Part shown: one piece after another, positions 13,456 to 61,100 of the stretch | How positions within the stretch are numbered: the stretch's first letter is position 1 | How the letters are laid out: each line of letters starts with the position of its first letter | Assembly: GCA_965178125.1 (NCBI GenBank) | Contig: OZ237761.1 | Coordinates: 434,001-498,000, forward strand | Length of the DNA stretch: 64,000 nucleotides | Origin: Bilabrum cf. latius | Taxonomy: Eukaryota | Direction: 5' to 3' | The notes under the pieces: model-generated | The model's database searches: none | What the model saw: only the letters and a program-made list of their open reading frames with translations | What the model was told of the DNA's origin: nothing | Position numbers and translations under genes: made by a program

Positions 13456-13567
13456 GAAAAATTCTCGAGTTGCCGGATACAATTGCACGCAACTATGCAT
13501 TTAAAAATCAGAACTGCGACAAAGTGCAATCGCAACCACGCAGACCTTCTGTACGAACCCAATCGTT

Positions 13568-15412
13568 ATGTCGACCCACACATTTGTGGCAACAGTAAGT
13601 CTCCTAGCAGCAATAGGCTTGGTTGCACCAGCAGGCTCCTCGCTCAGTGGTCCAGAGGCACAAACTGAATGCGGCCAAGTTTTGGGCGTTCGCAACTCCA
13701 CCCTGTTGGTTGATGCATATTTAGGAATCAAGTACGGCGCAAGTCCAACAGGAGCAAGGCGCTTTGCAGATGCCGTCCCGCTGCGTGATGCTGGGGAGTG
13801 TTGGGCCCCCCAAGTTTGGAATGCCACCTCTTTTCGAGACTATTGCGTCCAGTCTGGGCAGTTTCAGGAGGGCGGGAGCGAGGACTGCCTCTTCTTGAAT
13901 GTGTGGATGCCCATGAATGTACAAAATGCTCCAGTGATGGTGTATAGCTACGGTGGGGATCTCACTGACGGGCGGACCAACACGTATGATATGGGCATTC
14001 TTGCCAGCGAGACCGGCGCGGTGGTTGTATCCATGAATTACAGAGTAAACATATTCGGCTTCCTTGCTGCTGGTGCTCTGTCACGCACCAGCGCCAAGAA
14101 GGGCGGCCGCCCGTCCTCTGGCAACTACGGCTTCACGGACCAGATTCAGGCGCTCCGGTGGGTGCAGCGCAACATCCGGTCCTTTGGGGGCGATCCGTCC
14201 CGGGTCATGTTCTTTGGATAGAGCAGCGGAGGCACCTCCGCGTTCGCTCTGCTGGGCAGCCCGCAGGCAACGGGCCTCTTTCGAGCGGCGCTGAGCCTGA
14301 GTGGGAGCGCCAACTTGACCGCCGGGCTACCCGAAGCGGAGGAGTCCCATGCTGCCATAGTCGAGGCACTCGGGTGCGACAGCGGCAGCAATGGCGACGA
14401 AGAGGTCGTGGCGTGCCTCCGGAAAGCTTCCCCGGAGTCTATCGTGGCAGCCGTGCCCAAGGCCTGGGACACCTCCAAGGCGCTGTGGTCTTGGCCGCCC
14501 GCTTCTGCCGCCGCATCCGGGGCCATGGACTACAAGCCCATTGCGATCGTTGATGGGCACGTGGTCAAATACCCGCTTCTCGAGGCCCTGAATCCGCAGG
14601 TGAGGGCTCGGCTTCACCCGGGAGTCGCGGTGGTGATTCAGAGCATGGGGCAGGAGGCAGATGCCCAGCCGGGGACCGTGTTCGATGGCGTGTCCAGGGC
14701 CGAGTTCGAGCAACAGGCCAGGAAGGAGTTCGGACCATGGGGCGACAAGGCTGCTCCCATGATCTTGGAAGCGTACAACGCCTCACTGTAGGCGTAGGAC
14801 GGAGGGCCGCAGATGGCGTTTGCCGAGATCTTGGGGGGATACGGCATGCAGTGCGCCAACAATGCTCTCGGTATGGCTGGTATTGGCGCTGCTACAAGAG
14901 CACAGCTTAGCAGCCGGAGCGGTGTTGTTTCTGCAGCAGATCTAGTCGGCAGCAGCGAAAGCAGGGCGGGGGCTGCGCAGGCGGGCCCTCTGTACGTGGT
15001 GGAGGTGCAGGCCAGGCCCAGCCACCCGATCTGGGGGTTCGATCCGTCTTACCAGCCGCGTTACGCCTTCCATTCTTTCGATATCGTGGCCGGTTTGGGT
15101 CACTGGGACCTGTGGAGCAAGCAGCACGGCAAGCCTGCGTTTGTGCCGAACGTGGAAGACGAGGCATTCGGCCGGGCCATGCGGACCATGTTTGGTGCTT
15201 TGGCCGAGGAGGGCTCGCTGGAGGGACTCGATGGATTTAAACCGTTCGATAGTGAGTGTTCTCAGCGATTCGGTGGTGCTGGCAAATGCAATGGCACTGT
15301 GGTTGTGATCGGGCAGGGGGGCAAAGCCGCGCCTCTGGCGAGCGCTCACGCCAAGCAGTGCGACGCGTGGGCCGCCCTGGGATTTGGACAAGGCTACTGG
15401 TGGTGCAATTGA
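13568..15412 (+). CDS. Secreted type-B carboxylesterase (COesterase family; TAG at 14219, 14789, 14795)
   Basis: Signal-peptide-like N-terminus, SEDCLFLNVW, SMNYRVNIFGFL, GNYGFTDQIQALRWVQRNIRSFGGDP, nucleophile elbow FG*SSGG and YAFHSFD. Three ORF fragments share a frame; ends TGA. Confidence 0.9.
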
Positions 15413-15585: not shown

Positions 15586-17502
15586 ATGCAGGACGGTAAA
15601 GAGTCCGCAAAGCAACGTTTGCTGCACGAATACGACGGGAGTGACCAGGCCGCAGTTGCTCCAAAACTGGCTGATCAGAAGAGTGATAAGGCCAGTGTTA
15701 CAGCAGAAGCAAGTCCAGATTGCTGCATGTGCTGCTCCCCGTCCCTTGCCGGGTGGTTCCTGGGAGCTGATCCGCAGGAAAGTGACTAGGCACTCGTGGC
15801 ATTAGGCCAGTGGTTTGACCTATGGTGGCCGATTTCATTGAACACGGTCCTTCGGATGGGCTTCCTTGTCATTGATTTGTCGTTCCTGGGACATTTGGGC
15901 ACGAAAGAGTTGGCGGGGGCAGCGGTTGGCAACAGCTTCATCTTCTTGACTGCAGCGTCTCTGTGGCGGTCTGCCGGTGGTGCGACCGGCGTCCTGGCTT
16001 CGCAAAGCGTAGGAGCAGGCAACAAGCGACTCTCTGCTATATGGTTACAAACCGGCATATATGTGGGTTTCATGTTGTGCATTCCTGTCGCGCTCCTGTG
16101 GATCTTCAGCGAGCCAGTTCTCGTCGGCCTTGGGTACAAGGAGAGCGAAGCCGTTCTGGCGGCTCGATTCTGCCGCCTCTTTGCCATCGGACTGCCGCCC
16201 ACGGTCGTGTTCTACGCGGTGACAGCGTGGCTCCAATCCCTCAGCATCGTGCGCCTGTCGCTGATCGTCAGCGCCGTGATGGTGGGCCTCAACGTCGCCC
16301 TCAACATTTTGCTCATCCACGGCTTTAGGTTCTTTGACCCGTCCAACGAGTCCCTCTGGCCGGGGCTGGGCTTCGACGGCAGCCCAATCGCCACTGCGCT
16401 CGGGCGCTGGCTCTCCCTTGGTGTCATGTTCTTGCTGATGGCGCTGTGGGACGGGGACCACCACAAGGCCTGGAAGGAGTCGGGCATTCAGATCAGGGAG
16501 GCGCTGGACCCGTCCAAGCTGTGGGAATGGGGCGCAAAGCAGTTCCTCCCCATGGTGGGGGCTGGCCTCGTGTACGAGGTGTAGGTGCAGCTGCTGGCAT
16601 ACCTTGCAGCGAGGCTAGCACCCTCCGCGCTCTCGGCGCACACGAGCTTCCAGGACCTCTTCTACCTACTTACATCGGCGGTGTACGCGGGTTCCTCCGC
16701 CACCAGCACAAAGACGGGCCACTACCTGGGGGCAGGGCAGCCCGAATGGGCGAAACGGATCGCGTACTTCTCCATCAAATTCGCCGCGGCCGCTGCCTTG
16801 CCCGTGAGCGCCGTGCTTCTGGGGCTTCGGTGGAGAGTGGGGTATTTGTTCTCCACGGACGGGGATGTGCTGCCGTGGTTCGGCCAGATCGCGCTGATCG
16901 TGGGGTGCGGCTGGCCCGTGGTGTCTGCCAACTACACGCTGATGGGCATCATCGGGGGGCAGGGCAGAGCCACCATCCGGTCGTACGTCGGGCTCGCCGC
17001 GGGCTGGGGAGTGGTGGTCCCTTGTGCCCTGGTGGCCGAACTGGTGCTGCATTGGGAGGTGTACGGCCTGTGGGGATCCACAGCGGCGGGCTGGCTGGTG
17101 TCTGCAGTGCTGCTGACCGCGGCCTTTCTTTGGAGCGACTGGGAGGATCTGGCTCGGTAGGCCAAGGAACGTTCCTTAGGGAACAAAAATGCAGGCAGCG
17201 GGAAGGAAGCACCCCAAGTCGACGATGAACGAGGGGATGGGCACGGGAGTGGGCATCGGATGGGAGTGGCCTAGCGTGCCGACTGCGAGGCGGCCGGGAC
17301 CGTATCGGGGAGTGTTGGCGGTATGTACACGGTATCTGGAGGGGAAGGGATGGACAGCGGCGAGAATGGCGGGGCAAGAGCTGTGGGGAAGCACCAGGGG
17401 TGGTCTACCGGTGGGCGAGCGGGAGATAGCGAGCACCAGCGGTGGCCCGCTGACACGGGAGGCTCGCTGAACGATGCCGGGGGACAGTCACATGAAGTGT
17501 AA
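15586..17502 (+). CDS. MATE family efflux transporter (TAG at 15787, 16582, 17158, 17272)
   Basis: IDLSFLGHLGTKELAGAA, LASQSVGAGN, GLGFDGSPIAT, second repeat half starting after the TAG at 16582, C-terminal WSDWEDLAR. Many TM segments; ends TAA 17500-17502. Confidence 0.88.
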
Positions 17503-17633
17503 GATATCAAGGATCACTGGGTTTTTTTGGCCGAGTTGCCGCGCACGGTAGATATCAACGACTCCGATCGGCGGCCTTGGCGAGGCACAATAAATCCACG
17601 TCACGAGACCAGCTGCAGAATCTTCGCTTCGCA

Positions 17634-18732
17634 ATGTCTGATCCATTCGGCAAGGAGCCCATTTCTGGCCTGGTTGTGATGGATGCGGCTAAATTCAGCG
17701 AGTCTGGACCGGTGGTGCGACCGGGGGCCCGCAGGGCAAAGATTGGCGTGCTGGCACTGCAAGGCGCATTCAAGGAGCACGTTGCCCTCCTAAAAGCATG
17801 CGGAGCTGAAGCCATCGAGGTTCGCAAGGAAGCCGAATTGGATGAATGCGATGGTTTAGTATTACCGGGAGGAGAGAGTACGGCGATGACACTGATTGCA
17901 CAGCGCACTGGGATGGTAAGTGCACTTGCACTTTCCCTATGAAATGGCATGGCCGTGCTTGTCTGCACAACACTGCGCTGCAAATCGCTAATAAGGTTTG
18001 GTCGCTCTTATGATCTCGCAGTGGGAGCCCTTGAAGCGCTGGTTATCGACGACATCCAAGCCAACTTGGGGCACGTGTGCCGGCATGATCCTTCTGGCAG
18101 ACAGAGCAACAGGAACAAAGTCGGGTGGGCAGCCTCTTCTTGGCGGTCTAGACGTGACAGTGCATAGAAACTACTTTGGGTCACAAGCATAGAGTTTCGA
18201 GTCTCCTATTTTGGTGTCGGATGACGTTCGTGCTGGTTTGGGTGTATCCGCTTCGGAGAAGCTGCCAGGCGTGTTTATCCGAGCACCAGCGGTGCTCTCC
18301 GTCGGTCCATCCGCCACGCCCATAGCTACAGTAAAGGCTCGACCCGGGGACGCAAGCACCCCGGCATGGGCGCAGGGCAAGGGGCTGGAAGCCGGCATGG
18401 AGGGGGTGGAGGCAGTGGCAGCCAAGGCAGGGGAGGGTGCGGGCAGCGCGGGCAGCGCCGGGGATGCTGGCAGTGGAAGCGCAGCAGCAGGCTCCGGGCC
18501 GGCGAGCTTCCCAAGTGGCCTGGACAGCAGCGACATCGTGGTGGGCGTCAGGCAGGGTGACCGTTTCCTTGCGACCGCGTTCCACCCAGAGCTGACGTCA
18601 CACCTGGGCTGGCACCGAATGTTCGTGAACATGGTGGAGCAGCACGTTAGCAAGGCAGCGGGCGCTGCATCTGCCGCCAAGGTCCCATCGGGGCCTGAGT
18701 TGGCTGCTGCAGCCTCAGTCGGAGGAGACTGA
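17634..18732 (+). CDS. PDX2: Pyridoxal 5'-phosphate synthase glutaminase subunit (exons 17634-17915, 18022-18732; TAG at 18190)
   Basis: [61 protein letters not shown]. Intron GTAAG...CTCGCAG 17916-18021 joins the frames; ends TGA. Confidence 0.93.
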
Positions 18733-18974: not shown

Positions 18975-21061
18975 TTAATCTTCAACGCGCACTGGCACCA
19001 TGAAACCCGTCTCCACCTCCTCGTTACAGATGGCTTCGTTGTTGTGGTACAGCGTGGAATCATTGGCGAAGTATGCGTTCATGGGTGGCGCCTTGGCCCC
19101 GTATACCTCCAGCCTCTGCTTGAGGGACTGAATCAGAGAGGCGTAGTTGGGATCACCGGCCAGGTCGTTGTGTTCCCCAGGATCGGCAGTCACGTTGTAG
19201 AGGCAGGCTGGGTGGCACGGGGGCGAGTCCGGCTGGTGCGCGTGGACGGAGCCGACCCTGCAGTGGTTGGTGCCTGGCTCCGTCTGCCCACCAGACTGGC
19301 CCCAGGGCACTGGCGAGTCACCCGGCTCCGGCCAAGCGAGCGTCCGCGGGTCGCCTGGCTTCCCGACGATGATTTTCATGTCTCCCTGCTGCATGGCAGT
19401 GACATTCTCCGTGAAGTGATTGTTCGAGACCTGGTGCACCACCTCGTTCCTTGGTGAGGGGGCGCCGTGCATGATGGCATCCCATTGGTTGAGCGAGTCC
19501 ACGGGCGTCGGGCCTGTATGGCTGGGAATGGTCCCGCCCACCACGCCCTCCACGATCGTCCGCTACCAGTCTGCCATGTGCATGAGGCCGCTGTACGTAG
19601 TCCCTCGCCGCTGCTCCGGCACCAGGCCCCCGGACGCGAAGGCAAACACCCTGACACCGCCATCCCAGAACGTGTGCTTGCCTCCCCGCAGTGGGGCGTT
19701 GGGGCAGTGGTCAAGCGGCCCCCCTGCGGGATACAAACCAGGAAAAGTACGGCTCAATATACATGTATGCAAGTGCAAGGAGGATCAGAACGGAGCGAAT
19801 CACCGATCGTGTGCTCGATGCCCTGGCGGTGCCTGGCGGACGAATGGACAGATGGTCAAGTGGACGAGCGGGCAAACACTGACAGGCGGACACGCGGACT
19901 CACCGTTGTCACTGGTCATTACGATCAGCGAGTCCTCGTACATGCCCTTCTGCTTCAGCGCACTCGTCACGTTCCCCACCAGGTAGTCGAGCTCCGTGGT
20001 CACCGCGGACTGGGCCTTGTACGTGTCGTTCTTGACGAAAGGGTACTCTTCCACGGTCTCGCAGGGACTCTGGATGCCCTGGGTGGACTTGTCCTTGCCG
20101 CAGGCGAGGTGGACGTTCTGCGCGTGTTGTGCTAAAGGAAGGACGGGACTTGGATTCACGATATATCCTCTCCTACACACCCGCAGAGATCGGGCATTGC
20201 TGCTCAGTGGCCCACGGGGGCACACACATCAAAGCTTGCTGCCAGTGGCGGTGGCATGCAGTGCCATGCAGTGCTATTCTCTCTTGTCTTCGGCTCACCT
20301 GGGGGGCGATGTACAGGTACAGGGGTGCATCTTTGCCTGGCTCATGCTTGTTGATGATGTCCAGGGCGTACCGAGTGAACTGGTGCGTTGAATACGTTCC
20401 GTTGGTCGGCTCGTCGTGGAACGTGGAGGCGCCGTGAATGCTGCGGTTGTGGGCCAACGAGAAGTCCTGCTCGAAGCCTGTCGAGTTGTGGCAACGGTCC
20501 GCCCCTGGGTCCGTATGAAAGAACAGATCTGCATTGCAGGCCTTGGAGTAATAAAATGCAGTGTCAAAGCCCTTGAAAGTGGGCTGGCACTCTTTTACTG
20601 CGTATCCAACGTCCCATTTGCCGATCATGTGCGACTGCATGCCAGACTGCCGGAGCAGCTCTGGCGTGAGGGCATAATCCTGCAAGCACTGATTCGGGCC
20701 ATTACTCATGTCATAGAACCCTACATTGAATGGATAGCGCCCTGACATGAGGGAGGCACGGCTTGGAGCGCAAATCTTGAAGGTAAAAAAGCGATCTAGC
20801 ACAACGCCAGAAGACATCAGCTCGTCGATTGCCGGTGTTTTTGTCAGCCCACCCGTCCTTAGACCAGTGTTACTCCAGCCTAGATCGTCGGCCATGATAT
20901 GCACGCTGCGGGACGGATCAGTGCATGCATGTAATACCTATGCTGAGTACTGTAATACTGTTCGATTTCTCGTGCGCATGCCTGAGCTTGCCTCACATTG
21001 TCGGGGAGGCTGCCAGTACACACGGAAGAAACATGACGATAGACTACTTCAAGAAAGACAT
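18975..21061 (-). CDS. Arylsulfatase B/I/J-like sulfatase (exons 21061-20997, 20905-20299, 20117-19904, 19723-18975; TAG at 21044, 19563)
   Basis: Spliced product has a signal peptide, PTIVHIMADDLGW, CAPSRASLMSGRY (CxPxR), GKWDVG, APQNVH, SDNGGP, NAPLRGGKHTFWDGGVR and LYNVTADPGEHNDLA. Three GTGAG..CGCAG introns; ends TAA. Confidence 0.9.
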
Positions 21062-22445: not shown

Positions 22446-23346
22446 TTACTTGGCCATCATCATGTCCACGAACTCCTCGTAGTTGATCTGGCCATCGCCA
22501 TCCACATCAGCCTCGCGGATCATCTCATCGACCTCCTCGTCAGTGAGCTTCTCACCGAGGTTGGTCATGATGTGGCGCAGCTCGGCGGCCGAGATGAACC
22601 CGTTGCCGTCCTTGTCGAACACCTTGAAGGCCTCCTTGATCTCCTCGGCGGAATCGGTGTCCTTCATCTTGCGGGCCATCATGGTCAGGAACTCGGGGAA
22701 GTCAATGGTTCCGTTGCCGTCGGCGTCGACCTCGTTGATCATGTCCATCAGCTCGGCCTCCGTGGGGTTCTGGCCCAGGGAGCGCATCACGGTGCCCAGC
22801 TCCTTGGTGGTGATGGTCCCATCACTGCGGACAAACAAAAAGAAACGAGACGCGCGGAATCAGGCGGTACATGTTGGATCCACAGACGGTGTAGGGCATG
22901 GCACCAACGGCTATTCGGACCGGTTCCTCACCCGTCCTTGTCGAACAGGGAGAAAGCCTCTGCGAAAGTTGGATTGAAGATGGATTTTGTTGGTTGCATT
23001 GTGAGACCGGCATTTGCCCTCATTGGAAGAGAAAGGAGGAGGCGTTGCCAACTTTAGGTGGCCGCTGGGTATCTCACCCTTGAACTCGGCGATCTGCTCC
23101 TCGGTCAACTGATCTGCGCGACATATTTAAGTTAGTTATATATATACGAAGGTCAGACTGCTCACGGTCGCACGCGACCGATACATCGAGCATGACAAGG
23201 TCCAAAATGTACGCGGTTGACGTCCGCGTGGAGAGTCATTGAAAGTCTGGTCATTTTGAGACTGTGCGCGGCATACACCACCCAAAATCGTCTGTTTGAT
23301 TTATTTGCCCCGCTATTCATCGGCTCAAATCATCCTCACCAGCCAT
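22446..23346 (-). CDS. CaM: Calmodulin (exons 23346-23340, 23113-23078, 22959-22932, 22824-22446)
   Basis: Splicing three GTGAG...CGCAG introns gives [56 protein letters not shown]...[10 protein letters not shown], followed by TAA. Confidence 0.98.
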
Positions 23347-25449: not shown

Positions 25450-25885
25450 CCGTGCTCCGCAGCCGGTCTGCTTCTTCGTGGAGCACGCACTGAGGGGTAG
25501 AGTGGACGCACTCCCTGCACACACAGTCGCGGCGGCCATGATTTATCTCTATTACACAGTGACGAATCATGTCTACGTTCAAGCACGGTCCCTAACACAG
25601 TGCTGTCACCGGCTGGTCTGGACTGGCCTATGCATCACGAACGGCGCCGACGCAGCAGCCATGATGCGACCAAGTCTCACCAGTGATAGTGTGGCGACCA
25701 TGACTTAGATGCATACGTCCGCCGCCCAGTTGATTTATAGGCAGACTTATTTCTACTTGATACTGTTTTTGGAGAGGCTATCCATCGGTCCAGGTGCGCC
25801 GGCAGCGGCGCCGCGCAACGCCTGCCCGGCTCCGCATATCCGGTAACTCACCTCGACCCACTTGTGATTGGTCTCTCAGCGGTCG

Positions 25886-28800
25886 ATGTCGGCTGCAGCA
25901 GGCCACGATAAGTTCCCAGGAGCATCGCCCATAGCATTGTAGGGTCAACGTGGTGGCGGTGGTGGGAATTATGCCGATGCAGGAGGCTATGAAAGCAAAT
26001 CGCAGGGCATCGATGGATTTGGGCCGGAAACCACATCACGGCACGGCCAAGTGTCAAGCTTGGGATCGCGGGGAGGCTCTAGGATGCCTTCACAGGCACC
26101 AGATCGCCGCGGCTCTGTGGAAACCAGGCACAGGTTTGGAGTTGGATTTGCTGGGCACACGCTAATGAACCCGCATCCTGAGGCTGCAGCGATGCGAAGT
26201 GTTCGCTCGCCTGGGGGTCCTCGCCGCGGCAAATAGTCCCGTCCTCCTTGGCAACAAGACTTTAGAGATCCATCTCGCCTCAACGAACGCCAGTTTGGGT
26301 ACTTCAAGGAGCTTTTCGACAAGCCGAGCAGGTCGACCGATCGCAGGGTGTTTTCATCACCCAAAGCCGAGGTCGCAGGGACCAGAGGAAGGGCTCCAGG
26401 TGGAGCTGACCCTTACGATACAACTGCTCCAGGTGCTATGCCTGCCCTGGGCGCTACTGGACCGGAACGAATGTCTGTCGTGCCGCCGGTCGGTGCCCGA
26501 GCTCGTTCTCCTCGCGCGATCTAGAGGTACCTCGACGAAGTGGAGCGAGCCAAAGAGCTCGAAAAAGGTTGGAACGGCCGCGCTCACGTGACAGTTTCCA
26601 AGGACAACGGCCGGATCAGCCCTGTGTTTCGCGAGACTTTCGACCAGCCGCGAGATTTTGACGACGCCACGCCAGGCATCCGCCCCCGCCGCGTGGACGG
26701 GTACGTCCGCTCGCCCACGGGCGAGTACACGCCTACTGCGTTCGCGGAGCGCACGGCATCGCGCGGGGCCGAAGGAAACGCGGCGGGCTTCCCACCCGCG
26801 GGGGGCAGACAGTCTCCGCCAGCACTTGCGGGTGCGGGTGCTCGACACGACGGCCGCGGGAGGGGTGCAGCAGCCCGCCGGGGCGGACCGCGCGGCGCCC
26901 GCGGAGCGGTTCCGTAGCACTCTCCCATCCGCGGAGCGCCGAGTGGCAGCCGCAGCCGCAGCCGCAGGAGCAGGGGCAGAGGCGTACCCAGGGGGGGCAA
27001 GAGTAGGGGGCGGGCTCGTGGCGGCTCCCCTGCCGCCAGGGCGGCGCAGCGCCGGCTTTTACGATCGGAGCAGCGTCGCAGGGAACAACAGAGGGAGACT
27101 GCGGAGCAGCAGCGGCAGTGGCTCGAGCGATGGGATTCCCCCGCCTACCGCGCTCGCGAGGCAGAGTACCTCCGTCGCAGGGAACAAGGCTGGGACCCTC
27201 GACACTACGTCGTGGCAGCCAGGGGCAACGAGGAGGTGCACCACTCGCAGAAGGCTCTCTTCCGCCGCCCGTTTGAGGTGCAGCCCGATGGAACGGCCAG
27301 GAGGATGCCGACGCCTCCCGAAATCTCGCCGCTGGTGATGGTGCCTGACGCAGGCTTCGCTCCCAGACCCCCCTCGCGCCCAAGGTCGACCCGGTCTGCC
27401 AGGCATGGGCGCAGGGCCCAACAGGTCGGTGATGCTGGGGCTGGGGACGATGCTGAGCCTATTCCAAAGGTAGATGAGCAGGAGGAGGCTGCTGCCAAGA
27501 AGGCCGCCGAGGAGGAGGCCGCTGCCAAGAAGGCTGCCGAGGAGGAGGCCGCACACAAGAAGGCTGCTGAGGAGGAGGCTGCTGCCAAGAAGGCCGCCGA
27601 GGAGGAGGCTGCTGCGAAGAAGGCTGCCGAGGAGGAGGCTGCTGCCAAGAAGGCCGCCGAGGAGGAGGCTGCTGCGAAGAAGGCCGCTGAGGAGGAGGCC
27701 GCACACAAGAAGGCTGCTGAGGAGGAGGCTGCTGCCAAGAAGGCCGCCGAGGAGGAGGCTGCTGCCAAGAAGGCTGCCGAGGAGGAGGCTGCTGCCAAGA
27801 AGGCCGCCGAGGAGGAGGCTGCTGCCAAGAAGGCCGCCGAGGAGGAGGCTGCTGCCAAGAAGGCTGCTGAGGAGGAGGCCGCACGCAAGAAGGCTGCCGA
27901 GGAGGAGGCTGCTGCCAAGAAGGCTGCCGAGGAGGAGGCTGCTGCCAAGAAGGCTGCCGAGGAGGAGGCTGCTGCCAAGAAGGCCGCTGAGGAGGAGGCT
28001 GCTGCGAAGAAGGCTGCTGAGGAGGAGGCTGCTGCCAAGAAGGCTGCTGAGGAGGAGGCCGCCCGTTGGCCAAGCAAAGGCCCCATTGTGCGCCTGGAGT
28101 CGCTTGGATTGCCAGGACAGTACTTGCGCTCTACACCTCAGGGCACAATGGATTGCAAGGGTGATTCCGCTGAGAGAGGGGGTCTATGGCGCGTGCACTA
28201 CCTAGGAAAGGGCGTGGTGGGTCTGCAATCGCTGGATCTCGGCGAAAGGGTCAACGAAGGTGGCAGCGAGAAACCGGCTGGTGCAGCTGGTGCTGCTGCC
28301 GGTGCCCCTGGCAACTTCTTCATTGGCTCAGAAGAAGACCGTGATATTCTTCCACCTGCGACCACGACTCGCGACAACGTGGGTGCGCACTGGCAAGTAT
28401 ACTGGTGCGATGGGGACATGGGCGGGCCTCAGAGGGCCACAGACGGTAACGCGCTGGACATGGGCGGCGTGTACATGTTCATGAGCGAGGAGGGCGACAA
28501 GAATCTGTGCGCTGGAAGGGACGGTGGTGTTGGTGCCAATGGAGGGATTGGGAAATTCTCGCGCTTCGTGTCTCACGTGCAGAAGGAGAAGGACGCGATG
28601 GAAGCCGAGCCGATGAAGCTGGAGGAGTAGAAAAAAGAGCCCCCGAGGCCCAAGCGCGGCAAGCTGCACATCCGCCTGCACCACGCCAAGGGCCTGCCTG
28701 ACTCGGACACCATCGGCTCCTCGGACCCGTACGTCAAGTTCAACGTGGACGAGGACGGCTGCCCGTGGGTGACCTCCGAGAAGCGGGACAACACGCAGGA

Positions 28801-31393: not shown

Positions 31394-31515
31394 GCCGAAG
31401 TGCTTCGGTGTGGACGCTTGGGTTCAACAAGTTACGTGCATTTTTTGAGAGGTCACGATGAATGGCAGCTCACGCCACTATCGTTCTGACAATGTCATAG
31501 AAACCAGCAGAAGAT

Positions 31516-35348: not shown

Positions 35349-37211
35349 TCACTGTCTCCCCTCCACGGCACTACCAGACCCGCGGTCCTGCGCCCCACTC
35401 CCAGTACTGCCAGCAGCACCAGATCCAGATCGAGCCCACCACGCGTCATACCCGAGTCCCTCACCTTTCCCTCTCGCGCTGGCGCCAGTGCCTCCTCCAC
35501 CCCCGACGCTCGTGTCCTCGTCACAAACAGGGGCACAGACCGTGGCCCCGTGAGCCACCGCCTGGAAGCAGCCCTCGGGCAAGCCCTCCAGCCGCAGCTT
35601 GCTCGCCAGCCGCATCGGGGGCTCGTCCACGGGTTCGCTGGTCAGAGGGAACGTTCCCCAATGGTGCCCGACGGCCTTTTTGCATCGGGTGTCCTTCATC
35701 ATATCCACCGCATCCTCTGGACTGGCATGGACCGTCGCCATAAACCACCTGGGGTGGTAAGCCCCTATGGGGAGTGAGCCGATGTCAAAGGGGCCGTGCA
35801 GGTCCCCGATTTGCTTGAAGGCAGGGCAGGGCACGTCCCCTTGTTCCCTGAGGTGCTGCTCCTCCGCCACTGCGGCTGCGGTAGGCTTGTCCTCATTCGC
35901 CACCCCGCTGCCTCCCGCTGCCGCCTGCCCTTGCTTGCCGGTAGCAGAAGAAGAAGCGCTCTCTTCCACCGACATTAGTTTTTTCTTCTGCTTAGGCGAT
36001 GACGATGCCGCACCCACTTCCTCCTTATAAACCTACAGAGCCTCCGCCTCCACTGGCAAGAGACCGTAGAAATTCTCCCCGGGGCGAGGAGCCTGGTAGC
36101 CGGTGTCTCCCGAGAAATAGTACCTCTTCCCCTGCCCCCGAATGACAAACCCGCCCCACAGCGACATGTCTCGGTCAAACAACGTCCTAGCGGTATTGTG
36201 CTAGGCTGGCACGAGGTGCACCATCGGCACCTCGCCCTCTGTCTCGCAGGCCCGAGCACTGGCTGCCGTAGACCCCACAACGCCCTCCCGCGCCCAAGCT
36301 TCCAGCTCCGTGTCTGAGCCCGGCACCAGCCCGTCCACCTCGGTGCCGGGCCGCAGGGCGCTCGCAAGCGGCTGCAGCAGACGGACCCCCGACTAGCGCA
36401 CTCGCTTGGCGAAGGCAGTCGGACCTGCCGATGGGCTGAATCCCGGCCTGGCCTTCTGGATCCTAAGCGCGGCCTCCTCGTCCTCCTCGCACGCCTCCAC
36501 CCACCGTGCTCGCCTCTCGTCAGTGGTCGCAAGGAACCGCTCCGACCTGTCGGTGGCGGGGTTGTCGTCCAGCAGCCTTCTCTGGTCTGCCGCCGCGCAC
36601 TCCCACCAGCTGAGCGATCTAATGTTGTGCTTTGGCACGTTGAAGAACCTGTGCAGCTGCTCGCCGCACCCAAGGGGCGCGAACCAGCGCGTCCGGTCGA
36701 ATCTCCTGCGAGTCGGCGCGCCCCGAGCGTCCGAGCCGATCACCTCTGACTGGCGCTTACGGTCCGTTTCTTCCTTCATCATCAGTCTAAATATCGAATT
36801 CTCGTCCATATGGTCGTAATGCGAATGCGACAGCACCACAGCGTCGATCGGCGGCAGGTCCTCGATCTCGCAAGCTAGCGGGGTGTATCGAGCGATGCCA
36901 AACATCTGAGTCGGTGAGCATCGATAGGATAGGGCTGGATCTGTCAATATGTTCCACCCCTCTATTTGCACGAGAAAGCATGCGTGGCCGAGCCAAGTCA
37001 CCTGAAGCGGAGAGCTTGGCGCCTCAATCGCATCTCTGTCAATGGCAGTGCTCGGCGCTGGTCTAATCTTCGCCTTCCTCAAGTCATCCCCATTCTCCCT
37101 GAGCAGCCTAACCAAGTCTTGATTCCTATGCCTATGAAAGGAGTGCCATTCTGGTGGGTTAGCGAACCGCCCGTCTGGCAATCGCACGGGACGTGTCAAG
37201 GTCGTTGACAT
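35349..37211 (-). CDS. NAPEPLD: NAPE-PLD-like metallo-beta-lactamase-fold hydrolase (TAG at 36393, 36201, 36033; start may extend to 37277/37292)
   Basis: VTWLGHACFL, ILTDP, LSHSHYDHMD, PA*H...RTLFDRDMSLWGGFV, YFSGDTGY, LPIGAYHPRWFM, HWGTFPLTSEP; ends TGA. Confidence 0.9.
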
Positions 37212-39204: not shown

Positions 39205-39653
39205 GTTCTGCAAGGGTAGTATGGGCATGGCAGCAGTGTACGAGAGCACGGTAACGCCTATTCGTTGAAAAGACGGATGTTATAAGAAAATCGCGTGTTC
39301 AAACCGAGAAATATCACAGCTAGGTCGGCAAATGCAACGTTGCAGAAAGATCGCGGACAACGCAAGAACGACTAGCCATGCCCTGTATAGACCACCGTAT
39401 TCGCTACTTAAGAATGAGCCACTAGAATTATGTGATTGAATACGAGATTAGGGATCAAAAGCAATGAAAACTCACATGCGGTTGAGAAATTAAAGTGTGT
39501 ATTGCATCCACTGTTGGGTCCGCAGGGCGCCGGCGCCGCGCAACAAAAGTGGGTGGTTCCGTAAGCGGACGATATTCCGGTGGCGTCCGTACAGAGTGGC
39601 TGTGACGTATTTTTCTCGCCCATGATAGCAGATGATCTTATTTTCTAATCAGC

Positions 39654-41144
39654 ATGCGCCGATTGCTGATTAATCTCTCATATTATGGGCCATCGTTTCG
39701 AGGTTGGGCGGCTTAGGGCAACTAGCCTGTGATGGGGTCCGTGCAAGCAGCGATGGAGGCTTGCTTGTCATCTACGTTTGGAGCACACCAGTTTAGCCCA
39801 CTACGAGGATCCAGTCGGACCGACGCTGGCGTGCATGCCTTGCAGCAGCTCGCGACAGTTGATTTGAATAACGAAGGGCTTGGTTCAGCTTCGCCTGACC
39901 ATCTTCGAGACCTATTTTGCCGCAAGCTGAGGTCTCAACGGTCGAATATTGCTGTAAATGAAGTAGCAGATGTTCCACTTGGGTTCTCAGCGAGAAGTGA
40001 TTCGGTTGGCAAGCAGTACGTGTATAGGATTATCGCGCCGCTGGGCTCCGCTGCTAAATTGGAGGCTACTGCGCAGCCCCCGGGCCATGGCTTGCGAACG
40101 ACTGCAGACTCGCTCTTAGTGAATGGAAGGCGCTGTCAACCAATGTGGACGACTCGCTGGATGGAGCATGTAGAGCAAGACAAGGCCTGGATCTGCCGTT
40201 GGCCGCTTAGCATGGGCTCGATGCAGAAGGCGGCGGAGCACATGACTGGCACGTTGGATTTTTCTTCTTTTCGAGCCGCTAGATGCACGGCGGCAGACGC
40301 GGTGCGCCGCATCTGGAGAGTAGATGTGTCAGCCCGTCCCTATGCACCGCCGTGCACAAGCGTCGGCAGTAGCGACACCATAAGCCATACGGACCTACAA
40401 CTACTAGATGAAGACGAAACAAGCACTGCCAGGGCGCTCGGTGCGACTTGCTCGAAGATGGGAGGCGCCCCGCCCTCGATGCACATTGGTAGCGATGACC
40501 GCCGGTGGAGGCCTGAGGGGGGGCAACTGTCACTGGCAGGCGACACAAGCCCACTAGCTCTAGACCTAGCGGCAGGGGCCTACCGAACGGATCGGCACTT
40601 CCCCAGCACCGCAACTTAGGCCGATTCAGGGGCATGGAGCAGCGATGAGTGGGTGAAGAGGCTGAGGCACGAAGCTAGCAAACAGGCTGGAGTGTCCGCA
40701 CAGGACGCACAGTGCCAGCAGAAGACAGATCGCCTAGCTCGACAGGACAGTGCGAGGGCCGCTGATGCCTCCCTGCCGCTGTCTGACATCCTCATCACGG
40801 TTGAGGGCGAGTCGTTCGTGTACAAAATGGTACGCAACATGGTGGGGGCCATCGTGTCGGCCGGTGCGGTGGGCTGCAAGCCTAATTTGCGGGGGTTTGA
40901 AAGGGGCTGGCTGCACTCCGACGACGTGCCTGGCCTCATTCAAGCCCAAGACAGGTCTATCTGCAGATATCCCACTGCTCCCGCCCACGGGCTGTGGCTC
41001 ACCCGCACCATGATTCCTTCCCTCGACCCCAGTTCGGATTTTATGCGGCAAGTGCAGGAGGATTGGCAGAAGTTCGCAGTTGAGATGGGGGAGCCAGCGC
41101 TAGCCGAGAGAGCGAGGGCGCTGAGGCGCATGGGGAGGCTGTAA
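39654..41144 (+). CDS. truA: tRNA pseudouridine synthase A family (TAG at 39714, 39723, 40617)
   Basis: MRRLLINLSYYGPSFRGWAA*...SVQ, GSSRTDAGVHALQQ (catalytic Asp), FSAR, YVYRI, GTLDFSSFR, GESFVYKMVRNMVG, TAPAHGLWL; ends TAA. Confidence 0.92.
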
Positions 41145-48998: not shown

Positions 48999-51914
48999 TT
49001 ACCGCGGTCGACCGCCGCGCGGCGACTCAATCTCAACGCTCGCCGGCGGCCTTGCGTTGCGACCACCTCGCCGAGCACCTGCCCCCTCGCCCCTGGCGTA
49101 CGCGGCATACCCGCCCCTGCCCCCACCCATCCCGCCACCTCCATCCTCCCAGTCATCGTCATGCCCAACAACCGGAGGCATCGGTGGCGGCCCACCGTCG
49201 TCCAAGTCCTCTACCATCGACGGCCCATGGCCCCCACGGCCGTAACCCGCCAGCCCGAACCGGCTGCTCCCGCGCCTCACCCAGGCCTCCGAGTCCTCCC
49301 TGCGGCCGTCCGAAGAGTCCCCATGCCGCCCGTAGGCTCCACCCCTGCCACCACCCCTGCCACCTAGGCCGTACGCAGCCGAGCTCTCTCTTCGATCGAA
49401 CCCCCCGCCGCCGAGCAGATACCCGCTGGACTCTTCCGTCAGCATCATGGATCGCCTGGGATAGTTCCCCGAGGTCTGCCCCGTCCCGTTGCTGCTGGCT
49501 GTCCCTCTTCTGCCCTGGCTGGCTGCGTACATGTCGTCAGGGTGGCCAGGACGGCCGAGTGCACCGCCGGCGAATCGCCCCCTGGACTCCACTGATCCGA
49601 TCCCAAGCCCTCCGCCATGCTGCTGCTGCACGTACCCATGCCCGGAGGCGTCGCTCTCCCTCCCCAGGCTTCCCATCCCGCGACCCGACTCGTCCATCGA
49701 CTCAGCGATGTCACCCCTATCCATCGCGGCCTCCCTCCAACCATCCAAAGTGGAGCCGCGCTAGCCTCCTCTGCCGCTGTTCCCCGGGACCCTGTACTGG
49801 TGGAACCCGGGCAGGCTGCCTAGCCCGTGGCTGGCTGGCGTTCCGCTCCCGCTGCTCCCGGACGGTGCCTCTCCCTCCCCCTGTAGCTGCGCCACCCTGC
49901 CACCGACAGGCACTCCACGCAAGGAAGCGTGCCCAGTACCGGCCCCTGCACCGCCGCCGTCCCCCGTCCCAGATCGAAGAGCGCGGGATCGTGCGTCGAG
50001 GCTGGACTCGTCTGCAAGCGAGGTACCCGCAATGGAGGGCACATCCGACTACAGTCCCTGTCGTGCGTACGAGCTGGTGGCCGGGTGTCCATCCGGCTCC
50101 GCGGTGCGGCGGTTCGATGCCCGCCCCTGCTTCCGCCTGTTTCCATGCCCACCACTTCGGGACCCCGGATACCTCTGCAACCCGGGGGAGTGTGACTCCA
50201 CCACTCCCCCCTCCCTAAGAGCCCCAAGCATCCCGAAACCCGGGCCATCCTCAATACTCAGGGGCGTGGCCGCGGCGAGCAGCCCGTTGCCCTAGGACTG
50301 CGAGCTCTCGGGTTCGAGACCCAGGCCAACCTCACCCCCGTACAGACCCAGCTCGTCGTCGCAACACCCCCCGCAGCACACGAACCACACATCCTCCGCC
50401 GTCATCGCCCCCCAATCCGAGCAGCAGCTTGCGCAAAAGAGCGAGTGAACGCACCGGAAGCACCCGACCGCGCAGCCCCTGGCCCCGCACGGCCCTTTGT
50501 ACCCTGACCCTGGCGCCCCATCACCCTCGCTATCCGCAGATCCGACAGACTTGGCCCCGGCCCCGCCGCTATTCCACCTGCTGTCTGGGACCTGGGCTGG
50601 CGATGCGCCTGGATGCCCTCCCGGACGGGAGCCCTCCCTACCCTCCAACGAGTCGTATGTGCCACCCACGCCAGCCCCCGCCAGCAAGGACTCAGCCAAT
50701 CCCTCGTGTGACGAGTATCCGCCGATGCTGTCGCCCCCTGGGGACTGGCCCCTGGCGTGGCTTCCCCCCTGCCCGTACTACTGCCTGTGCTCGTCCTCGC
50801 TGTCGGTGGTGAGCAGGCTCATGCCATCGTCAGGTGATAGCAGTGCACCGTGCTCGCGGGCGGGCCGAGCACCTGCTTTGCGGCCTGTGCGGGCCTTCTT
50901 GGGACCGGCCCGCAATAGCCTCGCCGCGATGCTCGCGAATCTGGAGAGGGCCGGCCGCGGCGGGCCGACTGCCACTGTAGCGAGCAGCAGGAGCACCGGA
51001 GCAACCTCCCAGGTGACTGTGAAACTGAGCAGGACGGCCTCGCTCGCTACGCTCCGCGAGCCTATGTTGACGGTGATCGCTTTGCATGCCGACAGAATAT
51101 CGAACACGGACCTCGACAGGAAGACCACGGCAATCGCAAACAGTATGCTGCCGACACAGGCGGGCACTCGGCGATTCTGGAGCTCCGCCGCAGTGTATTG
51201 CTGCATGCTCCACACGATAAACAGGAGGCCACAAGCAAGAACAAGAAATGTCACCCCGGACAGAACCAGTTGAATATGCGAAACCAATTCTTCCTCCTTA
51301 ACAAAGAACTTGTCTGCAGGATGATGCGCCGATTTCTCGTTGAGTGCCCCGGCTGCTATCGCGAGCGCTGATGAGAACACAGCGTGGAAAATAGAAGTGC
51401 CAATGAAAATATTAACCGCTCTCTCCTTCAGGTGGCCGCGTTGCCAGTCCAATCTACGCAGCATTTTGATAAAGAAGAGCTGCAGGAAGGCGAACAGCGT
51501 CCACTGAATTGCTGTAGGCATCCAGAATAGGATCAGCACGCCACTGTTCCACTTCCCCTCGTCTTCAAGAACTCCCAGCGTGTCAATTAACCAAAATATT
51601 GCTCGAAAGACGCTTTCGAGCAGGGTCAGCAAGCAGAAGCCCATCTGAAACGACCAAACCTTCGATCTTGTGCGTCGAATGGCCATTACTTGGAACGAAA
51701 GGGCGGCAATGAGACAAATATATAGTATCAGCAGGACGGAACCTGCAGCCAAGGCTATCCTTGACCTCGCCATGCTGAGCTGAACCTTTTTTGTAGCATC
51801 CAGTGGATTGACGAGCGGCGCCGCGCATGATGACTCGTCAACGGAACAGGACGGCCCGCTCGCGTCGAGAGGTTGCTGAAGGCTGCATGAGCGGTGCGAA
51901 TTGGTACTATTCAT
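48999..51914 (-). CDS. 7TM GPR137/TOM1-like membrane protein with long Gly-rich cytoplasmic tail (TAG at 50778, 50292, 50049, 49761; alternative start 51773)
   Basis: About seven hydrophobic segments in 50980-51770 (FWMPTAIQWTLF, TWEVAP). Downstream fragments are in the same frame to TAA 48999-49001. Confidence 0.72.
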
Positions 51915-51926
51915 TCCATCTCCAAG

Positions 51927-55100: not shown

Positions 55101-55651
55101 GAACCTCATGGAAGTCCAATTATACCATATTGAAGCCTATGCAGAATGAACCATGTGACGAAAGTAACTTGAACCCGCTTCTGCCTACACATAATGAATT
55201 GATTCATCTTGCTCTTGTGAAATGTAATGGAAGTTGATATCATTGATTGTATCTCTGAGTTTGAGGCGGTAAGTAGCTCATTGTAGCCGTGTGCGTCCGT
55301 ATCACAGTGTGTTGCAATTATGTAGGCTATCATTTGGTGCACATAGTCTCGCAGGAAGGATCTGGCTGGTCATTTCACGCTTTTGTGCGCCATTGGAACT
55401 TGAAACTTCTGCATGATGTGCACCTTCTGCTGGATGGCCCAATATTTTCGAGATCCGAGCAGGTCTCGAATGGCTTTCACTTCAGACGAATGAGGCTGTA
55501 CCAGCAGTGGTATAAGGCTTGTCTAAATGTGTTCATATCGGCTTCATCGATTCGCATGCGGATCGCGTCGTTCTATTGCATGTACATGGTGCTCGTGACG
55601 CAGCCAGGCTTGGAGCAGGCCAGATCCCCAGTCCCTGCGCGATGCAGCACC

Positions 55652-57892
55652 ATGGCATGGGAAGCTCTCACAGGGCTTGCCAGGGCCGTTTTGGCGGCAT
55701 TCGCCGAGCACAATACTGTTAGTCGAGCAAAGCAACCGCCTGGCCACAGCTGGTTGCTCGACTACGTGAGAGCACTCCGCCGCTCGGTGCACGCAGGGCT
55801 GCTCGTGCCATCGTGCTCGGATGGGTGCGCGGGCTCGATCGCAAGCATGGCGGCTCTGCTCGAGAGCGTGGAGCCCGGGCTGTCAGTGCCAGCGGCAGTA
55901 ACGTGCGCCGAAAGGCCATCCGCAATTGCGGTAGATGACTTCAGGCTGGCACAGGCACAGGCACAGTCACAGTCACAGCCATAGTCTCTGTCGCATGGCG
56001 GCGGCAAGTCCTCAAGCGGCCGGAATACAGCTGCAGGCGGCCCAATGCTAAGGGGTTGCCCTATTGACCTGACACCAGCTGCCTCGTAGACATGGCTTAA
56101 CTTGCAGCGCCGATTCGATAGGGCTATGCCAGCCGTCGGCGCATTACTTGGCTTGAACTAGCTGGCTGTTGCAGCAGTACCTACTGCTTCGACTGGGAGT
56201 TCTCCCCCCAGCCTTGAACGGTATGGTAGCAGCTCAAGTGGCGAACGGTATGGTAGCAGCTCAAGTGGCAAAACATCCGCCACGGCTGACCAAATAGCTG
56301 CTGCTGAGGACTCGCTTGGCAGCATTGGTAGAGCTCCAGCAGGTACAGAAAGAACACAGGCTTCCTCTGGACACCACCGGTCTAGCGATGCAGATTCTGG
56401 AGAGGACGAGTCCTGGCACGAGTCCGAAGAGGACGACCTGTCGGACTCGTCTATCGGTACTGATGAGGGGGACGAGGAGGAGGATGCCGAAAGCAGCTCA
56501 ACCTTGCGAGCTGCTGGAGATGGTTCCGTGCCAACGAGGACCCAAGCACGGGGCAGGCGAGCACGCGCGCGTGCACGGGTGGCCTCTCTTGCTCTTGCTC
56601 TGCTCACAGGAGTGCCCAGGGGAAGGCAGTCAGTGCGCGACGCAGTATCGTCGTCCTTGCGTGAGCGCCTAGGGCACGATGAGGTTCATGGTACTTTTCT
56701 GCAGGCAGCAGTGCAAAGGGCCCTGCGCCGGCACCAGGCCCGGCGAAAATGCTCGCTTGGTGCTGTGCTGGGCAACATCCCTCGGCAATCGCATGAGTAG
56801 CGCCATAACACGTAGTCGGCGGGGTAGCAAGCAAATGCTCAAAGCCGACGAACATTTGTTCCAGAGTAGTTCCTCGCCGTGCATACAGACACGCCACTTG
56901 ACGCCTTCGATCGAAGTACTCGATTCGATACCGAGCGCAGTATGGGCACCGCGGGCCCTGCTGTTGCCATGGACGGATCCAGGTATGACCCAGCGGGTGA
57001 TGGCGAGCTCACAGATCGCCTGCGACATGCGGCTCGCAGAGCGCTGGTTCGTCGCAATCAGGAGAAGAAGCGGGGGCATTCCGGAGATATGCTGGGCCGA
57101 GCGGTGCTGGAGCCACTAGGTGGCGCATACGCTCGACTCGAGACAGGCGGCGCCGGGATGCGCATGGCTCGAGTGGGAGAGCAGCCATCAGATCTGGTGC
57201 GAGGGCTGGCACTTGCGAGGCGCCGCGACGAGGACGAGGACGGAGACGCATCTCCCAGCTCCGATTGGTCGTCCAGCAGCTCGGACGAGGGTACCGATTC
57301 GGCTCGCGGCAATGCCCAGGCAAGTGAGGCCCTGAAACGGAGCCCAGCCTAGCGGGATGGTGCAACAGCTGTGGAGATGAATGGCGGTGGCAGGAGTGAA
57401 AGCATGTCAAGCTCAGAAGACGAAGCTATCCTGGCGGATGGTGGGAGGCGTCGATGGGAGGATCTACCGCTCGTGTCATCGAGCGGATAGCTGTAGCGGC
57501 CAAGCGCAGGGGCTGATGATCGCGGAGTTGCTGAAGGACAGCCCCCTCCCATTCACCGCGGGTCAAGAGCAAGCGGTGGCACCCATGCAGCATCGCCCGC
57601 GTTGTCCGGTTCACCAGCTGCCGTATCGATGGCTAATGAGTCGGGGAATCAAGATGAGCATGGGCTACAGCTTGACGAGCACGAGCTTTCAGATGCCAGA
57701 GGCGACTTGGAGGACGAGGCGGAGAGGTGGTCTTCAACTGTGCGGATTGTGTACGGCCCGCCGAACATCGGTGCGGCTGCGCACAGGTCCCAAGAGTCGC
57801 AAGGCTCCACTTCGAGCACAACAATGGACATAGCGTTGCGGATGTGGAGGGAGCAAGCTCGGCTAGCTGAGATCGCAGCGATGCACTCGTAA
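55652..57892 (+). CDS. Hypothetical protein (~746 aa, acidic/low complexity; ~10 in-frame TAG)
   Basis: ORFs 55289.., 56504.., 56879.. and 57602.. share a frame broken only by TAG; ends TAA. Start uncertain. Confidence 0.6.
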
Positions 57893-58143: not shown

Positions 58144-61100
58144 TTAATCTGACCCGCTGCTTTCACCATCGTCCCCTGCATCTGCACCACCACTCGTTGC
58201 AGGCACCAATTCGCCCAGGTACTTCTTGCCATGCTTCCTCGCCAGCTCATTGCGAACGGCAGTTGCAGCTGCACCGTGCTGCGCGAGCGACTAGAACCCC
58301 CTGCCCTATGCTCGAGGAACCCCGCCGTCAGCCGAATCGCTTGGCCTCACGCATCCCTGTACCGCGGCATGAAGCGCTGCACGAGCACCAGGCCCGAGAC
58401 CTGCTGCCGCTGCGTCCAACAGCCCACTCGCTTTAAGCCCATCCCCACCTGCAGCCAGTGATGCCGCGTCGGTCGAGCCGCCTGCACCGGCCCCGCCGAG
58501 GTGCATCATCATGCCTAGCAGCGCGCCGCAGAAGTCGTGGCCCATGCACTCGAGCTGCCTGGAGTCAAAGTGCCCCAGGGCACGCTCTCCCTGGGTCATG
58601 CCCGCAAACGACGCCTCGATCGTGTACGAAAAAGCCAGTGGCAGGTCCCTTGCCATGGCGACACGGGCACAGTTGGCCTTGGCACGATTGACCTTAAAGC
58701 TGCACGAGCCGAACGCGAAGTCGGTTGTTGTTCTACTCAATAGGAAGGGAAACAGGCGACCAGGAGTGCCGTGCGCCCATCGGTCATCGCAGCCGAACAT
58801 AAAGACGTTGCGGCGCCTTGAGTGGCCGTGAAAGTCACAGAACAGCAGAGGCCCACGATTTTGCCTGCGCACAGACAGCAGCATGTGCCTCAGATGCCAG
58901 ATGGTGGGCGCTTGCCGCCTGGTTGGAGTGGTCCAGTGTCTGTTCAGGTCGAATCCAGCCATATTCACGCGGTGATGCCCCGAGATGACGCCATCAGGGT
59001 TGAGGAAAGGGACGACTTTGAAGACGGCAAGCCTCCTGAGTGCCTGCGCCTGCTCGCAGCTCGAGGTAAGGAAATCGACCGCCCCGCGCATCATCCACGA
59101 TGCGTTCGTCTCGCCCGGATGCACGCGCGCGCTCAGCACCACCACCGGCCTGGCATCAAGGGGCACCCACGGAACGCCGCTAACGTCAAAGGCAGCCGGC
59201 GCGATCTCGGTATCTGTGATTGTGAGCAGCGGGAGCGGGTTGCCCAGAATGGAGTGGCATAGCACCGACCTGCTCATGTACCTGGAATGGAACAAGGCGC
59301 CCACAGGCAGCAGTCGGGAGTCTCCAGCACCTTCTGGGGAGGCATCATCGCCTGGTCCTACTTGTACCGTAGAGGTCGGGAGGCTGGAGGAAATCGTCTG
59401 AACTGGTTCTCCGGTCCGCTGCAGCTTGAGAGCCATGGCTTTGGCAGCTCTTGGACTGGACACCCGAAGTGTCGGTGCCGCATCATCGAGGGTCCCGTCC
59501 GGCAGGGGGGAAGCAGACGGCGGTGGCCGTCTATCAGATGCAGCAGCGAAAGGCTCATGCGGGCGGATGCACTGCTCTGCGGCATCCAGGGGAGCCTCCA
59601 CCAAAGGCACCGTCCCGTCCTCCTCGAGCCCCTCAAGCCGCAGCGCGCGGTGTTCCCAGCGACGTACATCCCGAGCCATGTCAGAGTACGTGTAGGGGTA
59701 GCAGTAGCACATCCAGAAGCGGCGGGTACCTGGGGGCAGGCGCAGCGTCCATACCTCTGTCCACAGCTGCTAGGTGTCAGGGTGGGGCTGTCCGCTGCTG
59801 GGGGTATCATGTTTGACTGTGCCTTTGGCGTCCTCTCCGGCCTTAGACGACTTGCCCGGTGCATGCTGGAGGGCGGCCTTGATGTCAGCAACGGCCTGTT
59901 TCGCGCGAGCGACAGCCTCTCTGGCTGCTTCGGGTGAGGGTGCTTGGTAAGGATCTAGCACATCACCAAGCTGCGGGACTGCACCGGTGTCGCTCACGTC
60001 GATTTTTGATTCTCTGGCAGCCTATGATTTGCCTCCAGCGGGCGCAGCATTGTCTTCTTGACCCGCTGCCGGCTCGTGCGGCGTCGCTCCGGGAGTGGGC
60101 AGCTGAGACCTCATCCAGGGACTGTCCAGCTCTGGTGCCTGGCCTACTTGCCGCTTCTGCTTGCGCATGTGGCTTCGGAAATACGCCACATCGATCCCTA
60201 GCCTCCGCCACCCGTCGCCAGCGGGAGGATCTCGCCAGAGGATGGACGTGCTCGGCGCGTCGTGTGCGTCGGGATCCGCAGCACCGACTGTCGGTGGAAC
60301 CTCTCCGCCTTGCAACGCGGACTGCAGCGCCGACACGCAACCCTGGGCCAGCTACGCCCCGTGAGACCTCCAACACCTCTCTGGCAGCGGTGTCGATTCG
60401 CCCGTGGTGCCTTCCACGTACACGACTGGTCGCATGCCGTGGTTATAGCTGGAATCTGCCTTTTCCAGGTTAAGGGCAGCAAGGGTTACCTCGATTGGCT
60501 GGTGCATTGCACGCAGAGTACGCGGATCGGACGGGCCGTCGGACTCCTTGCCAGCTGATTTGTCCGCGCCTTCTTTCACGACGTCGCACTGGAAGTTGAA
60601 CCACTAGGTATGACCCCCGGTGTTGGTGTCGGGGTCCAGCAAAAGAGCGTACTGCGATGGACCGACCCTCACGGCCGCCCTCAGGTTGCCAGTCTCGTAC
60701 CTTGACTCGAACTCCAGCCGCACGTCGTGCGAGTTTTGAGGCAGCTGCGGAGTGCTCTTGCTGCCCCCGGGGGCTCCCTATCGGCCGGGCGGGGTGATAG
60801 CTTCGAGGGCAATGGCTCGCCTGGTCGTTTCCGACGAGACGGCAACGGCAGCGTGCGGATTGTCACCGCCTTTCGCGAAAGCGGATCCGGTACTCCTGAC
60901 TGGGCTAGCGTCCTCGAGCACGTCTGTACTCGCCTCGTGGGTCTTCGGATCGATAGCAACCGTATGGCCGGAACCGACGAACTGGCGGAGGAGCACATCA
61001 GCCAGGAGTTCGCCCCTCTTGACAGCCCCAGAGCTGCCAGGTCCGATTCCATCCTGCCCCTCGCGCTCAGTGCCATCTGCACCCTGTGGCCGGGGCGGAG

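Follow-up and report, generated by a model that had tools for sequence, protein, structure and literature searches.

UAG as a probable glutamine codon, decoupled from the stop codons UAA and UGA, in a GC-rich eukaryotic locus

When UAG is read as a sense codon in a nuclear genome, does UAA have to change with it, and which amino acid does UAG come to specify? Both questions are raised by a 64-kb stretch of eukaryotic nuclear DNA (hereafter the window) of about 62% GC, which is densely packed with genes containing few introns and in which an ORF scan yields very long open frames once TAG is taken as sense. The sequence-only reading had proposed that UAG is decoupled from UAA in the window and that no in-frame TAA occurs inside any conserved domain. 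Both proposals hold: over 18,714 codons in 18 ORF segments there are 105 in-frame TAG against zero TAA and zero TGA, and two TAA are found at conserved C-termini. We conclude, with a probability of roughly 0.85, that in this nuclear code UAG specifies glutamine and that UAA and UGA are the only stops, which is the assignment of NCBI table 15.

Gene identities were obtained with Pfam, using ORFs translated with TAG as sense (Table 1). The genes are situated extremely close together: about 65 bp separate the LRR/WW frame from the divergent carboxylesterase frame (13500-13565), the C2-domain and phosphatase genes are separated by 68 bp (31393-31462), and the GTPase gene ends in a TGA behind which its neighbor's open frame starts immediately and in the same frame (51926-51929). 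Located between the MatE and sulfatase genes is the PdxT/SNO gene, which represents a pyridoxal phosphate synthase subunit and whose domain is interrupted by a long Ala/Gly/Ser-rich insert. The C2-domain gene encodes five C2 domains and several nearly identical repeat units; it further contains two tandem arrays, one with a unit of 30 bp (27480-28059, 19.3 copies) that codes for AAEEEAAAKK-type repeats and one with a unit of 6 bp (30761-30988, 38 copies) that corresponds to a Pro-Ala tract. For the large C-terminal exon of the EF-hand gene no usable match was obtained in the protein atlas (standard-code reading).

Table 1. Genes, informative TAG sites and gene ends in the 64-kb window. Positions are those of the window; CP, coding potential over 60 codons before and after the stop.
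Feature	Position	Strand	Remarks
PARP-domain protein			Pfam
LRR/WW giant ORF, 3828 codons	2014..13500	-	24 in-frame TAG, 0 TAA, 0 TGA; ends in TGA
Type-B carboxylesterase	TGA at 15410..15412	+	Pfam; ends ...GYWWCN, close homologs ...FWWSN or ...YWWAN in the same column
Carboxylesterase TAG before nucleophile serine (G-x-S-S-G-G)	14219..14221	+	Q in 15/15 closest homologs, Cafeteria included
MatE transporter	TAA at 17500..17502	+	Pfam; CP +0.235 before, -0.095 after; tail not conserved
PdxT/SNO glutamine amidotransferase, two exons	~17607-17942, 18079-18732	+	Pfam; ends in TGA
PdxT/SNO TAG	18190..18192	+	E or D in four bacterial PdxT structures
Arylsulfatase, three exons	TAA at 18975..18977	-	Exon structure by tblastn; ends ...TGFMVPVRVED, the ends of most of 19 homologs differ from this point by a few residues at most
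Sulfatase TAG (ADW-x-RT), contrary site	19563..19565	-	Y in 18/19 homologs, L in 1
Calmodulin	TAA at 22446..22448	-	Pfam, PDB match
Calmodulin last exon	22449..22824	-	Translation, PDB match
Calmodulin upstream exons	22932-22959, 23078-23113	-	Read by eye; first exon uncertain
DHHC palmitoyltransferase			Pfam; ends in TGA
Repetitive C2-domain protein	25868-31393	+	Pfam
Dual-specificity phosphatase			Pfam
CarboxypepD_reg-domain protein			Pfam
NAPE-PLD-like metallo-beta-lactamase		-	Pfam
NAPE-PLD-like TAG (VPA-x-HN)	36201..36203	-	Q in human 4qn9, V in distant TM_1162
EF-hand protein, at least 3 exons	38998-39279, 38589-38924, 37497-38588	-	No in-frame TAG
TruA-type pseudouridine synthase	39654-41144, TAA at 41142..41144	+	Pfam; CP +0.112 before, -0.066 after; tail not conserved
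TruA-type TAG, N-terminal motif	39714..39716	+	Q in 108/150 homologs
cNMP-binding protein			Pfam; 19 in-frame TAG
Multi-pass membrane protein ORF	TAA at 48999..49001	-	No Pfam match; more in-frame stops beyond (TGA 48972, TAA 48969)
YqeH/NOA1-like GTPase	TGA at 51927	-	Pfam
ORF with SNAPC1-like match	55265-57892, TAA at 57890..57892	+	Match weak, below Pfam cut-off; CP +0.186 before, -0.132 after
Cytosolic carboxypeptidase (M14)	TAA at 58144..58146	-	Pfam; CP +0.240 before, -0.271 after
Carboxypeptidase TAG, N-terminal domain (HT-x-WFNF)	60604..60606	-	Q in 3/3 (P0151, 3l2n, 4a37)
All TAA ends	17500 (+), 18975 (-), 22446 (-), 41142 (+), 48999 (-), 57890 (+), 58144 (-)	+ and -	
TGA ends, plus strand	1911, 15410, 18730, 25447, 31391, 33268	+	
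TGA ends, minus strand	2014, 33648, 35349, 37497, 41278, 51927	-	

In-frame TAG is widespread, being present in 17 of the 19 gene models, and several of the triplets sit within catalytic or otherwise conserved motifs. Because the six-frame average of the window amounts to about 125 TAG, 52 TAA and 225 TGA for 18,714 codons, TAG is roughly as frequent in the coding frame as elsewhere, with TAA and TGA being excluded. The LRR/WW frame (see Table 1 for its counts) is the best single piece of evidence for read-through of TAG but not of TAA and TGA. As the sequence-only reading had itself cautioned, the stop tally is partly circular (TAA and TGA delimit the ORFs themselves); scanning with all three stop triplets disregarded leads to an outcome that agrees with it, with TAG inside coding regions and TAA at their ends.

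The earlier tally of 12 genes ending in TGA and 7 in TAA is reproduced by our own 19 models. Homology fixes three of the 19 C-termini, namely those of calmodulin and the sulfatase (both TAA) and of the carboxylesterase (TGA), each at a position that is conserved in the family; none of these three ends in TAG. The remaining 16 tails are not conserved and their ends are defined by the ORF end together with coding potential, which for the five other TAA ends is the only basis.

One of these ends is that of calmodulin. At 22446-22448 the plus-strand triplet is TTA (TAA on the minus strand), and the codons ahead of it translate into ...EFVDMMMAK. In a PDB search, the last exon (its residues 6-130) matches calmodulins of 149 residues from residue 25 to residue 149 (E ~1e-74; an example is chain 10nk_B, with a sequence common to 163 entries). 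Since the alignment reaches residue 149, the TAA directly follows the canonical last lysine, and the earlier description of this gene as ending MMMAK-TAA at its canonical C-terminus is borne out by the alignment as well as by the TTA on the plus strand. If this TAA is ignored, the frame continues for 330 more codons until the next TAA or TGA. The introns of the gene are small and of the GT-AG type, with AG acceptors and GTGAG donors.

Coding potential, calculated as a codon-usage score that leaves out all three stop triplets, gives a similar picture for the gene ends in general. On average it is +0.29 ahead of a TAA and -0.09 behind it (n=7), and it falls from +0.27 to -0.12 at TGA (n=11), against +0.13 before and +0.15 after internal TAG (n=97). 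As a minor point, a purine follows all seven TAA stops (G 5, A 2), compared to 59% of the TAA triplets in the window; the bases after the TGA terminators (G 4, C 4, T 3, A 1) show no purine preference.

It might be argued that the code is context-dependent, with TAG being sense inside genes yet a terminator near some 3' ends, or with TAA sometimes being sense elsewhere. The sample comprises 19 genes and a non-conserved tail cannot fix the stop. In the DHHC gene one TAG lies 7 codons upstream of the TGA and could be the real terminator there, and in the carboxypeptidase gene two TAG are found 48-53 codons ahead of the TAA. Nonetheless, TAG terminates none of the three genes with a homology-fixed C-terminus, TAA is absent in frame from all 18,714 codons, and each model reaches a TAA or TGA at which coding potential drops. 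In Condylostoma, karyorelicts and Blastocrithidia the same codon serves as sense and as stop; such a dual use is not seen here in 19 models, where TAG is found only in frame, and TAA and TGA only as terminators. Overall, we consider a context-dependent code very unlikely, although a low level of dual use may have gone unseen in so small a sample.

Given TAG as a sense codon, its meaning can be read from alignment columns and from domain scores. Glutamine is dominant in four of the six informative columns: 15/15 in the carboxylesterase, 108/150 in the TruA-type protein, 3/3 in the carboxypeptidase (for which the homolog search yielded 1 protein among 8000 candidates scored) and 1/2 in the NAPE-PLD-like protein. 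Solved structures of TruA from E. coli and T. thermophilus have glutamine in this TruA column as well. In addition, we rescored the COesterase, PseudoU_synth_1, Lactamase_B_2, WW, LRR_4 and SNO families of Pfam with TAG translated as Q, E, Y, L or S. Glutamine ranks first in all six families and in the summed score (565.5 bits, against 555.8 for E, 553.3 for S, 550.4 for Y and 547.7 for L), though at a modest margin of 9.7 bits over E. The base following TAG (G 38, C 36, A 16, T 15) tracks the base following CAG (195, 186, 98, 86) rather than that following all codons, and TAG makes up 12.5% of the glutamine codons. Taken from these columns and scores, UAG most likely encodes glutamine.

The two other informative columns would be in favor of a different residue (Tyr, Glu, Leu or Ser) or of ambiguous decoding. 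Tyrosine occupies the sulfatase column in nearly all homologs, at what is the single in-frame TAG of that gene and the one conserved site that speaks against glutamine, and acidic residues occupy the PdxT column; furthermore, the column of the carboxylesterase TAG contains glutamate in the distant cholinesterases of the PDB. The SNO domain nevertheless scores slightly better with Q than with E (62.2 against 61.0 bits). At the sulfatase position human ARSB (1fsu) has a leucine, and TAC and TAG differ by one step, such that the site could represent a Tyr-to-Gln replacement; alternatively, it could be a hint of mixed decoding. With glutamine being invariant or dominant in four conserved columns and having the top score in 6/6 families, another residue or a mixture of residues appears highly improbable, and glutamine is retained as the meaning of UAG.

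The evidence presented here consists of DNA, which leaves room for the view that TAG is still a stop, either restored to CAG by U-to-C editing of the RNA or contained in ORFs that are pseudogenes. Pseudogene decay is unlikely because it would generate TGA and TAA too, whereas neither is found in frame beside the 105 TAG, and the domains score normally. Editing of UAG to CAG is disfavored by prior knowledge only: we are aware of no case in which U-to-C editing in nuclear genes is directed at one type of codon. We give this explanation hardly any credence in either of its forms.

UAA and UAG might also both encode glutamine (as in table 6), TAA then being missing in frame simply through GC richness. 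Indeed, no stop triplet is less frequent in the window than TAA (359, against 852 TAG and 1538 TGA on both strands). Other two-fold codons ending in A, however, reach 0.14-0.38 of their G-ending partners. With the CAA/CAG ratio of 168/567, about 31 in-frame TAA are expected if TAA encodes glutamine, and zero are seen (Poisson P = 3e-14); even the lowest ratio of A- to G-ending codons predicts about 14 (P = 6e-7). Because 14-31 TAA are expected and none is seen, GC bias is insufficient to explain their absence. A six-frame scan, which is noisy and also flags TGA triplets opposite long ORFs, detects TAA in best-frame coding regions at the annotated termini, at the tandem stop at 48969 and, at the loosest setting, once out of frame; the same regions contain 41-87 TAG. 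Moreover, calmodulin and the sulfatase end in TAA at conserved termini and coding potential collapses after 7/7 TAA. A code in which both UAA and UAG are glutamine is thus about as improbable as editing or pseudogenes. Selenocysteine or pyrrolysine at TAG was rejected, as to our knowledge the codon is the wrong one or such use is unknown in eukaryotes, and the glutamine columns fit.

How UAG could have been reassigned with UAA left in place may be sought in the tRNA and in the release factor. A glutamine tRNA with anticodon CUA would decode UAG, and this anticodon would pair with UAG and not with UAA. In published work, a suppressor tRNA(CUA) reads UAG only, and a UUA anticodon reads UAA and UAG (PMC11687900, PMC5304391). 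Because a CUA anticodon reads UAG alone, UAA would have remained unchanged while UAG changed. On the side of termination, recognition of UAG by eRF1 would have been lost or weakened, with that of UAA and UGA kept. The tRNA scan detects zero tRNA genes in the 64-kb window, which speaks neither for nor against such a tRNA, and with Pfam no eRF1 gene is found among the window ORFs. The loss of UAG as a stop is not readily explained by an AT-driven disappearance of the codon, because GC pressure should favor rather than deplete UAG and UGA is the main stop. Instead, UAG may have been captured by the tRNA(CUA) through an ambiguous intermediate.

Codes of this type are rare, as the sequence-only reading had stated with Iotanema, rhizarian exLh and phyllopharyngean ciliates as examples, which agrees with the text of PMC5304391 and PMC11687900. 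According to the same sources, UAG as glutamine with UAA and UGA as stops has previously been described in Iotanema spirale, Protocruzia tuzeti, Hartmannula sinica and Trochilia petrani. Where UAG is the only one of the two codons to have changed, it can also stand for leucine, as in rhizarian exLh and some ciliates, or for serine, as in Scotinosphaera (PMC5304391, PMC11687900).

One of the closest parallels in codon assignments is the fornicate Iotanema spirale (Panek et al. 2017, PMC5304391), for which the account of the code describes identical assignments, with UAA as a stop and no UAG terminators. Its code was detected in a similar way, from in-frame UAG at glutamine-dominated columns and from conserved C-termini (PMC5304391). 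Iotanema is an anaerobic metamonad known from its transcriptome, in which UAA is the main stop (104/119; PMC5304391), whereas the present data are genomic DNA with TGA ending 12/19 genes. Its eRF1 carries T32G in the GTS motif, which the authors propose as the cause of UAG non-recognition (PMC5304391).

In the ciliates Hartmannula sinica, Trochilia petrani and Protocruzia tuzeti (McGowan et al. 2024, PMC11687900) UAG alone has likewise become glutamine. Judging from the values given in that article, UAG accounts for 18.5-31.8% of their glutamine codons (12.5% here) and in-frame UAG occurs in 78-84% of their genes (17/19 here). These ciliates prefer UAA as a stop, use UGA least and have 27-54% GC, against about 62% in the window; they also belong to a lineage that is described as prone to code change (PMC11687900).

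In exLh and Scotinosphaera UAG and UAA are decoupled as well, with UAA and UGA as stops (as reported in PMC5304391 and PMC11687900). The residues leucine and serine differ from the situation here, where the Pfam scores of L and S are the lowest or near the lowest. The UAR = Gln codes of table 6 (many ciliates, diplomonads, some ulvophytes, Amoeboaphelidium) also capture a stop for glutamine, but in those codes UAA is sense; here TAA is absent from the 18,714 in-frame codons and ends 7/19 genes. What sets the present case apart from the known ones is the GC-rich genome and the use of TGA as the main stop (12/19).

The best named relatives of the carboxylesterase are found in Cafeteria roenbergensis (45-47% identity) and Bicosoecida sp. 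CB-2014. A FastTree phylogeny of this one gene, displayed with no support values, places the window protein together with one metagenome protein as sister to the clade that contains Cafeteria. Of the 80 loci that a metagenome scan with the carboxylesterase alignment yields, none is closely related, their identities being 31-43%. On the basis of this single gene we tentatively assign the DNA to a bicosoecid-like stramenopile. The genome of Cafeteria is described as compact, with about 70% GC, in the text of 10.1101/751586.

An indication that the code extends beyond a single organism comes from P0152, a Logan-derived protein of 288 aa. It is 85% identical to the TruA-type protein and covers residues 27-321, exactly filling the gap between two TAG codons of the window gene, at residues 24 and 322. 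This suggests that the relative from which P0152 stems carries stops at the same TAG sites, and that a caller applying the standard code cut the gene there. The same breaks suggest that a code with UAG alone reassigned may be common to at least a small clade.

In the literature full texts no report was found of a UAG-only code in a stramenopile or bicosoecid, although supplementary tables may list further taxa. At about even odds, the window may represent an independent and so far unreported origin of the code in which only UAG became glutamine. The host would then be a stramenopile related to the bicosoecids, Cafeteria-like and free-living, and its genome would be compact, with about 62% GC.

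It is rare for only one of UAA and UAG to change its meaning, and such exceptions allow the link between the two codons to be tested. Two links have been proposed, wobble pairing by a UUA anticodon and shared recognition of the codons by eRF1. Another exception outside the ciliates and metamonads would be an independent data point, for which genomic DNA is available and which is GC-rich and dominated by TGA. The eRF1 and the putative tRNA-Gln(CUA) of this organism could show which changes let a eukaryotic release factor reject UAG but keep UAA and UGA, and could also bear on whether mutational pressure is needed at all. Gene callers using the standard code fragment the genes at TAG, as P0152 appears to show; annotation of such a genome needs table 15.
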